A stretch of 64,000 bases of DNA, from contig CAZVIN010000083.1 in NCBI GenBank assembly GCA_964627255.1, positions 86,114-150,113 on the forward strand, in the 5' to 3' direction. Numbering within the stretch: the stretch's first letter is position 1; each line of letters begins with the position of its first letter. Under the pieces are notes generated by a model. It worked only from the letters and a program-made list of their open reading frames with translations, had not been told where the DNA came from and ran no database searches. This document shows, piece by piece, positions 59,375 through 59,486 of the stretch. Made by a program: the position numbers and the translations under genes. This DNA comes from an uncultured Eubacteriales bacterium. GTDB lineage: Bacteria; Acidobacteriota; Aminicenantia; Aminicenantales; CALLJL01.

Positions 59375-59486
59375 CCAACCAACCAACTAACTAACTAACT
59401 AACTAACTAACTAACTATCTATCTATCTATCTATCTATCTATCTATCTATCTGTCTGTCTGTCTGTCTGTCTGTCTGTCTGTCTGT
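59375..59486. repeat. Compound tetranucleotide microsatellite (CCAA)3(CTAA)7(CTAT)9(CTGT)9
   Basis: Read directly: 28 uninterrupted 4-nt units in 112 bp, each block one substitution away from the previous one. Lies between tRNA-Leu and the 3' end of the thioredoxin-like gene. Confidence 0.95.

Follow-up and report, generated by a model that had tools for sequence, protein, structure and literature searches.

How a row of 28 perfect tetranucleotide units came to stand in the chromosome of a free-living, uncultured hot-spring bacterium of the Aminicenantes, and whether it does anything for its host, are the questions raised by the locus described here. Long simple sequence repeats (SSRs) with units of 1-4 nt are rare in prokaryotes outside host-adapted pathogens according to Mrazek et al. 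(2007) as cited in PMC4679880. The first-pass annotation had taken the tract for the product of point mutation and slippage, probably hypervariable in length between strains, but also for a phase-variable (contingency) locus and for part of a tRNA integration hotspot. The tract occupies positions 59375-59486 of the window, i.e. the whole 64-kb stretch of DNA that was analysed, and reads (CCAA)3(CTAA)7(CTAT)9(CTGT)9, amounting to 112 nt followed by a partial CT. A recount matched exactly the earlier description as 28 perfect 4-nt units in four blocks with neighbours one base apart. The tract resides in a 412-nt spacer on which the genes on both sides converge, and the position assigned to it before, between convergent genes and just 3' of a tRNA, is correct, with tRNA-Leu(GAG) on the plus and a thioredoxin-like gene on the minus strand. 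The features of the locus are as follows:

58761-59150, plus strand: secG, last gene of the gap-pgk-tpiA-secG cluster
59158-59246, plus strand: tRNA-Leu (anticodon GAG), directly downstream of secG and left neighbour of the spacer
59247-59374, no strand: 128-nt spacer from the tRNA to the tract, about 79% identity with the sister species
59375-59486, no strand: the whole compound tetranucleotide microsatellite, 112 nt here, 112-164 nt in other assemblies
59375-59386, plus strand: block 1, (CCAA)3, which varies most of the four; other alleles have 3, 7, 8 or 11 copies
59387-59414, plus strand: block 2, (CTAA)7; 7-13 copies in other alleles, TAA/TAG stops in six frames
59415-59450, plus strand: block 3, (CTAT)9; 8-11 copies in other alleles
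59451-59486, plus strand: block 4, (CTGT)9; 8-10 copies or CTGT5-CTAT1-CTGT6 in other alleles
59487-59639, no strand: unique 153-nt segment that follows the tract on the right; missing in the sister species, invariant among contigs of the same species
59659-60108, minus strand: thioredoxin-like gene, called at 149 aa, which runs towards the tract and has its stop codon 172 nt from it
60135-61469, minus strand: gene for a 444-aa protein without Pfam family, adjoining the thioredoxin-like gene in every relative examined

The series of genes downstream of the tract encodes the thioredoxin-like protein, the 444-aa protein, which is conserved across Aminicenantes (341 matches, 40-95% identity), and a GAF/HD protein. 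The names given to homologues of the 444-aa protein assign the organism to Candidatus Aminicenantes. The remainder of the window is ordinary chromosome with genes for RNase P RNA, dnaX, pyruvate:ferredoxin oxidoreductase, a glycyl-radical enzyme and Mrp/Nuo-type subunits, and Pfam annotation of 30 window proteins likewise yielded ordinary chromosomal genes, with no mismatch-repair or PolI gene among them. The longest open reading frame for pgk (413 aa, 56699-57940) overlaps the end of gap (55762-56760) by 62 nt, and gene callers vary between a 413-aa and a 391-aa version of the protein across assemblies.

Adjacent blocks of the tract are one substitution apart and their order is kept in all alleles recovered, which makes the tract a compound microsatellite. 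Any two blocks are separated by as many substitutions (Hamming distance) as by steps in rank, so that the series describes a straight line through sequence space. With head-to-tail units of a size within the 1-6 nt that define a microsatellite or SSR, the tract is one of these, and its length is far beyond chance. It is the sole period-4 array detected by TRF in the 64-kb window, and a regular-expression scan of the same 64 kb (units of 4-6 nt, at least four copies) returned no other repeat. Two sets of control sequences were scanned as well: diverse bacterial sequences flanking the same gene cluster, 856 kb in total, contained no tetranucleotide tract of five or more copies, and 87 kb of related Aminicenantes DNA none of four or more copies. 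Apart from dinucleotide repeats, the 856-kb set has a single long SSR, the hexanucleotide repeat (CAGTAG)7 in a Latescibacterota genome (L058:5854-5895).

The locus was recovered from other assemblies by exact-protein look-ups, in which the 149-aa version of the thioredoxin-like protein was matched while the 151-aa open reading frame had no record, and repeat units were counted on the assembled contigs. A scan of genome contigs with TpiA led, among the matches listed, to distant phyla only (up to 58% identity). The flanks of the tract are identical in all contigs recovered (TTAACAATTGA on the left, CTCGGGGTTTTAAAAAAACGGGCG on the right). Six contigs of one Aminicenantes species carry six alleles of 112-164 nt, all of them multiples of 4 nt:

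Window: CCAA 3, CTAA 7, CTAT 9, CTGT 9; 112 nt
ENA ERZ27245602: CCAA 3, CTAA 8, CTAT 11, CTGT 10; 128 nt
JGI 3300010308: CCAA 11, CTAA 10, CTAT 9, CTGT 10; 160 nt
JGI 3300017449: CCAA 7, CTAA 13, CTAT 8, CTGT5-CTAT1-CTGT6; 160 nt
JGI 3300022548, contig A: CCAA 7, CTAA 13, CTAT 9, CTGT5-CTAT1-CTGT6; 164 nt
JGI 3300022548, contig B: CCAA 8, CTAA 8, CTAT 10, CTGT 8; 136 nt

Each of the four blocks varies in copy number independently of the others. Outside the tract, the same six contigs differ by 0-7 SNPs and by no indel at all per 4.5-15 kb. Six alleles on such a background imply that the tract mutates orders of magnitude faster per locus than bases are substituted, and they confirm that its length is hypervariable among near-identical contigs of one species. 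Two of the alleles are present in a single co-assembly, IMG 3300022548, which combines three layers of one mat core from the Cone Pool hot spring (PMC7490370). The predicted hypervariability between strains is thus borne out, with the qualification that assemblies may share reads or one mat and that the diversity "between strains" may therefore be diversity within one population. Identical lengths everywhere and a lack of further tracts had been named as the observations that would speak against it; instead, the lengths differ and the species possesses at least one more array (see below). The full-length consensus alleles may be pieced together, mosaic-like, from block variants present side by side in the population.

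A sister species with about 88.5% nucleotide identity and the same gene order on both sides of the locus was found in seven samples, among them one from Chocolate Pots hot spring (IMG 3300010938; PMC6137239). It lacks the stretch corresponding to window positions 59374-59639 (266 nt, comprising the tract and the 153-nt segment) and has 27 nt in its place. In more distant Aminicenantes the tRNA gene almost abuts the thioredoxin gene, and the flanking genes are kept. As neither the sister species nor the distant relatives have the tract, it must be younger than the split of the two species. The 266-nt segment is the only new, species-specific part of the locus. The orthologous 24 nt of the sister species bear a weak likeness to the first repeat units (14/25 matches), a faint hint of a proto-repeat and of growth in place. 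The 153-nt segment shows no lag-4 periodicity, for which reason it was rejected as a decayed repeat, and it was rejected as a duplication because it is unlike the 3' end of the thioredoxin gene, the tRNA or anything else in the window. No second copy of it was found in the 1.36 Mb of DNA that were fetched, including the arrays at the miaB locus described below, nor was an open reading frame or an RNA signal detected in it.

The proximity of a tRNA gene did not prove to be a sign of an integration hotspot. There is no integrase beside tRNA-Leu, the order of genes is conserved in the sister species and in distant relatives, a second copy of the tRNA 3' end (22-mer, up to three mismatches) is missing from the 64 kb, and GC content stays flat without any shift in composition near the tract. 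An 8-mer that matches the T-arm of the tRNA was dismissed as an att site, being at chance level. Features of MITE or IS elements were sought as well: no significant inverted or direct repeats bound 59374-59639, no target-site duplication is present and no further copy occurs in 1.36 Mb. No island was found that the tract could abut, and judged from gene order and composition it does not lie at a genomic-island boundary.

Nor does the spacer offer anything that a change in repeat number could switch. The CTAA block places stop codons in all six frames, and open reading frames in the spacer are limited to 24-41 aa, none of them with support. A search of positions 58700-60300 for sigma-70-like promoter sites was negative, and an Rfam search of the spacer at gathering and at relaxed thresholds assigned no family, the only match being a spurious lncRNA (E = 0.2). 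The flanks within the spacer fold no better than shuffled sequences (z-scores +0.8 and +0.1). No convincing terminator is predicted between either gene and the tract, which could thus be transcribed from either side. Both single strands of the tract have a minimum free energy of 0 and no structure, for which reason hairpin-driven instability was rejected; slippage needs no hairpins here. The hallmarks of a contingency locus are therefore found in part only: a hypermutable SSR is present, a position in a reading frame, a promoter or a 5' UTR is not, and no gene or promoter is placed such that it could be switched. In conflict with the original reading as a phase-variable locus, the tract is enclosed by convergent 3' ends, is closed to translation in six frames and is unaccompanied by a promoter-like site, open reading frame or RNA family in the spacer. 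The picture at this locus is that of a neutral microsatellite that mutates fast, and not of a gene switch, with neutrality deduced from the lack of any detectable feature.

The tract is not the only one of its kind. A metagenome scan with a (CTAA)4(CTAT)4 junction as the query returned 39 contigs, more than half of which are gene-poor and eukaryote-like, while about 15 are gene-dense and represent about 11 distinct loci. The window's own locus was not among them, so that the scan added no further alleles of the tRNA-Leu tract, and the junction did not occur in viral contigs. Four or five of the approximately 11 gene-dense loci belong to Aminicenantes: contigs L110, L113, L136 and L111 were assigned by protein names (L130 represents the same locus as L111) and L127 is probably to be added. 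Several of the gene-dense contigs are as close to the window in tetranucleotide composition as are confirmed relatives. At the L110 locus, the spacer separates a metallophosphoesterase gene and a convergent gene for a ferredoxin-domain protein, and the tract (L142:5691-5794) has the composition ATAA-(CTAA)8/10-(CTAT)7-10-CTTT. Eight complete contigs (L110, L142-L146 and L148 among them) that are 99.3-99.7% identical contain five alleles, one of which features an interleaved junction made of an 8-nt unit, (CTAT-CTAA)x3. A further locus, downstream of an S9 peptidase gene, has four alleles in four contigs. Other contigs show IS elements that have gone straight into a CTAA or TTAA unit. In another Aminicenantes lineage (L153:5901-7390, L154:5901-5959) the IS element follows (CTAA)8 within the tract; it encodes a DDE_Tnp_1_4/DDE_Tnp_1 transposase and has the terminal repeat CCTGAWTWATTCATAAA. 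A copy that is 93% identical resides in the opposite orientation behind CTAA-CTAA-TTAA (L152:5900-7545), with TTAA on both sides. The IS element seems to use the CTAA array as a series of target sites.

Some Aminicenantes contigs contain more than one array. In L111, an Aminicenantes metagenome contig (FWPV01), a second array, (TTAC)15...(ACTT)15(GCTT)7(ATTT)3 (L111:5032-5225), is situated 5 kb from the CTAA/CTAT tract. The contig L130 from the same locus has nine CTAA units where L111 has six, and (CCAG)5 and (TCAA)9 adjoin (L130:10790-11021). Contig L136 stems from the same samples as the sister species. Its array of 196 nt consists of CCAA/CTAA/CAAA units, CTAA6, CTAT10, mixed CTGT/CTAT and CTGT14, and is accompanied by a second graded array of ACCT, GCCT, CCAA3, CCAT2, CCTT3, CTTT2 and ACTT7. 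Both lie upstream of a C_GCAxxG-miaB-hppA-nusA-infB operon (L136:11115-11522; L156:3050-3457) and are identical in three assemblies. In the samples of the window species itself (IMG 3300022548 / 3300017449) we found contigs with a MiaB protein that is 90% identical to that of the sister species. Two of them (L159:1-190 and L160:1-32) begin inside an array that is orthologous in position to that of the sister species and reads (CAAT)8...(CTAT)11 CTGT (CTAT)11 (CTGT)n with n of at least 15. The miaB-locus array ends 110-115 nt upstream of the start codon of the first gene (about 115 nt in the window species), and this position is conserved in the two species. The window species thus has at least one further tract, some arrays persist across species, and the conserved position close to a gene start indicates that other arrays of this family could be functional. 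The best reading of these comparisons is that the Aminicenantes lineage is unusually prone to long graded tetranucleotide arrays in intergenic DNA. Our literature search retrieved no paper that links Aminicenantes with microsatellites, and the multi-locus, lineage-enriched pattern is without description in the literature searched.

Taking these observations together, we consider it likely that we are dealing with a compound microsatellite that is young, non-coding and hypermutable, that has arisen by slippage and seeding point mutations and that has no detectable switching function at this site. Pure blocks gain and lose 4-nt units independently of each other and very often, as is apparent from the alleles. 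This would occur by out-of-register realignment during replication, i.e. slipped-strand mispairing, without hairpin intermediates. Occasionally, a point mutation creates a variant unit, for which the lone CTAT inside the CTGT block provides an intermediate, and the variant would be amplified in turn, such that the ordered series CCAA>CTAA>CTAT>CTGT may have resulted. The origin from point mutation plus slippage that had been suggested from the window sequence gains support in this way: the blocks vary independently, and the single CTAT unit within the CTGT block of two alleles is the first step that would be expected. Changes in length are tolerated because the tract, lying between convergent 3' ends, touches neither a reading frame nor a promoter. 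It may well be one instance of a wider tendency of Aminicenantes, with a peculiarity of replication or repair as a possible cause. In H. influenzae the stability of tetranucleotide tracts depends on PolI and not on MutS, according to PMC12721329, which cites Bayliss (2002, 2005) for it; by analogy, such a peculiarity is a reasonable candidate cause in Aminicenantes.

Simple slippage does not predict the strictly linear order of blocks, the higher variability of the CCAA/CTAA end or the 153-nt companion segment. The first two of these leave room for a process of polar growth. It is conceivable, albeit quite improbable in our judgement, that the arrays form a lineage-wide system beyond passive slippage, in which units are added sequentially in a polar manner or in which some arrays act as transcription rheostats. 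Growth at one end would explain the one-substitution paths CCAA>CTAA>CTAT>CTGT and CCAA>CCAT>CCTT>CTTT and would also explain that the CCAA/CTAA end varies most. The array upstream of the miaB-hppA-nusA-infB operon would be a candidate mutational rheostat in a free-living, non-pathogenic bacterium, and, in that case, the tract at tRNA-Leu would have split off from the array system only recently and might lack a function.

Slippage could also do no more than maintain and vary an array that had been brought to its place ready-made. The 266-nt block, array and 153-nt flank together, would in this case have been imported from another array locus or from a mobile element. Both parts are indeed missing from the sister species, where 27 unrelated or weakly related bases are found, the block order CCAA-CTAA-CTAT-CTGT recurs in the sister's miaB-locus array, and the insertion of IS elements into (CTAA)n or TTAA units in another Aminicenantes lineage demonstrates that arrays interact with mobile DNA. 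However, the 153-nt flank is found neither a second time in the window nor in the 1.36 Mb that include the miaB-locus arrays, the block is devoid of target-site duplication, terminal inverted repeats, integrase and an att-like repeat of the tRNA, and the weak similarity of the sister's 24 nt to the first units hints at growth in place. An import is unlikely on this balance, and even less probability attaches to the proposal that repeat number switches or tunes a neighbouring gene or an unannotated transcript, as it does in Haemophilus and Neisseria, be it via the spacing of promoter elements, the stability of the thioredoxin mRNA 3'-UTR or interference between convergent transcripts. The tract is hypermutable like contingency SSRs, in the absence of strong predicted terminators it could be transcribed, the miaB-locus arrays 110-115 nt upstream of an operon are conserved in position in two species, and effects of intergenic SSRs on promoters and 5' UTRs are known (PMC2791445, PMC12721329). 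Against these points stands that both neighbouring genes point at the tract, which leaves no promoter or 5' end within reach, that the 412-nt spacer contains no promoter-like site, credible open reading frame, Rfam match or significant fold, that these genes occur in the sister species as well, where the tract is missing, and that the allele lengths are spread continuously over 112-164 nt instead of falling into discrete classes. We regard phase variation at this locus as very unlikely.

A more trivial explanation would be an artefact, i.e. an assembly error, a chimeric join with eukaryotic DNA or noise in the copy numbers delivered by the assembler. Eukaryotes are the usual place for compound TCTA/TCTG repeats, and the contigs from the junction scan are in their majority gene-poor and eukaryote-like. 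Two of the alleles have the same total length of 160 nt. One contig, L140, ends in an inverted repeat: at the end of Ga0212092_1000034 (L140:5576-5627), 26 nt of the normal right flank are followed by (AGTT)n, the reverse complement of the CTAA block, which is probably a fold-back misassembly caused by the repeat itself. Logan contigs (k=31) and one JGI contig end inside the tract, as is expected of such repeats. On the other hand, at least six contigs, obtained with different assemblers and from different samples, agree in both junctions and have colinear bacterial sequence around the tract, and independent assemblers (MEGAHIT at k141, SPAdes at k up to 77) both yield the tract with identical flanks. 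The IMG 3300022548 assembly was made from 2x150 reads with SPAdes at k up to 77 (PMC7490370). The pure blocks do not exceed 52 nt and are thus shorter than the final k of the assemblers (77 or 141), such that block counts are supported by real k-mers or reads. Furthermore, two assemblies have recovered nearly the same complex allele: those from JGI 3300017449 and contig A of 3300022548 are one CTAT unit apart and both have the CTAT interruption in the CTGT block, and the single-unit step combined with a common rare interruption supports the fidelity of the assemblies as well as stepwise mutation. Other Aminicenantes loci behave alike. The artefact reading is effectively refuted, and the hypermutable, slippage-driven microsatellite stays the preferred one.

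Neutral intergenic VNTR/SSR markers are used for typing bacteria (MLVA), examples being the SSRs of Mycobacterium leprae and the CAAA tract of Yersinia pestis. The tract resembles them in being non-coding, polymorphic in length among near-clonal strains, without known function and usable as a fast molecular clock, but it is much longer (28-41 units), is compound with ordered blocks one substitution apart, and belongs to an uncultured phylum with several such loci per genome. Human forensic STRs such as D21S11 and vWA have the form [TCTA]n[TCTG]n. Read in a different phase, CTAT/CTGT gives these same two motifs, and eukaryotic compound STRs likewise consist of adjacent pure blocks one base apart with interruptions and exhibit the same stepwise mutation behaviour, although the genome under study here is prokaryotic. 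By analogy, the tract most resembles neutral VNTR markers in kind and eukaryotic TCTA/TCTG STRs in architecture. With the contingency SSRs of Haemophilus influenzae and Neisseria it has in common the 4-nt unit, the long perfect tracts and the frequent gain and loss of units by slippage. Those tracts, however, reside in the 5' ends of reading frames or in promoters, where they switch genes of host-adapted pathogens, whereas the present one is compound with four motifs, lies between convergent 3' ends and is found in a free-living hot-spring organism. The TAAA tract of Neisseria nadA, for instance, is located upstream of the promoter (PMC2791445). Another precedent is provided by the TAACTGA heptanucleotide repeats in intergenic regions of marine Beggiatoaceae and cyanobacteria (PMC4679880). 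They share with the arrays reported here the lineage-specific abundance, the intergenic location at many loci per genome and the occurrence in free-living bacteria. They differ in their 7-nt unit, in sets of as few as two copies and in a position mostly just upstream of start codons, for which a regulatory role has been proposed, while the arrays described here have 4-nt units, tens of copies and graded blocks, and the tRNA-Leu instance is situated at 3' ends.

Compound tetranucleotide arrays of 100-200 nt in a free-living, uncultured hot-spring bacterium are at odds with the general view of long SSRs (units of 1-4 nt) as a hallmark of host-adapted pathogens, in which such repeats drive phase variation. 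The arrays behave like forensic STRs of eukaryotes in that many alleles occur in genomes that are otherwise almost identical, and the tract is therefore a ready and very fast marker with which the micro-diversity and the clonal make-up of an uncultivable organism can be followed in situ. With their intermediates and the IS insertions into CTAA units, the arrays make up a natural experiment on the birth, growth and decay of compound microsatellites in prokaryotes and may be a sign that Aminicenantes replicate or repair their DNA in some peculiar, so far unexplored way. They also serve as a warning, as such tracts break assemblies made with short k and can give rise to mosaic consensus alleles in metagenome-assembled genomes.

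The series of motifs is not exclusive to Aminicenantes. Among the loci of the junction scan is one of Succiniclasticum sp., a member of the Negativicutes from the rumen, in which (CTAA)5(CTAT)7(CTGT)3 is found between convergent tannase and purC genes (L104:2330-2800, L123), and a related contig, L107, carries a different, interrupted allele.
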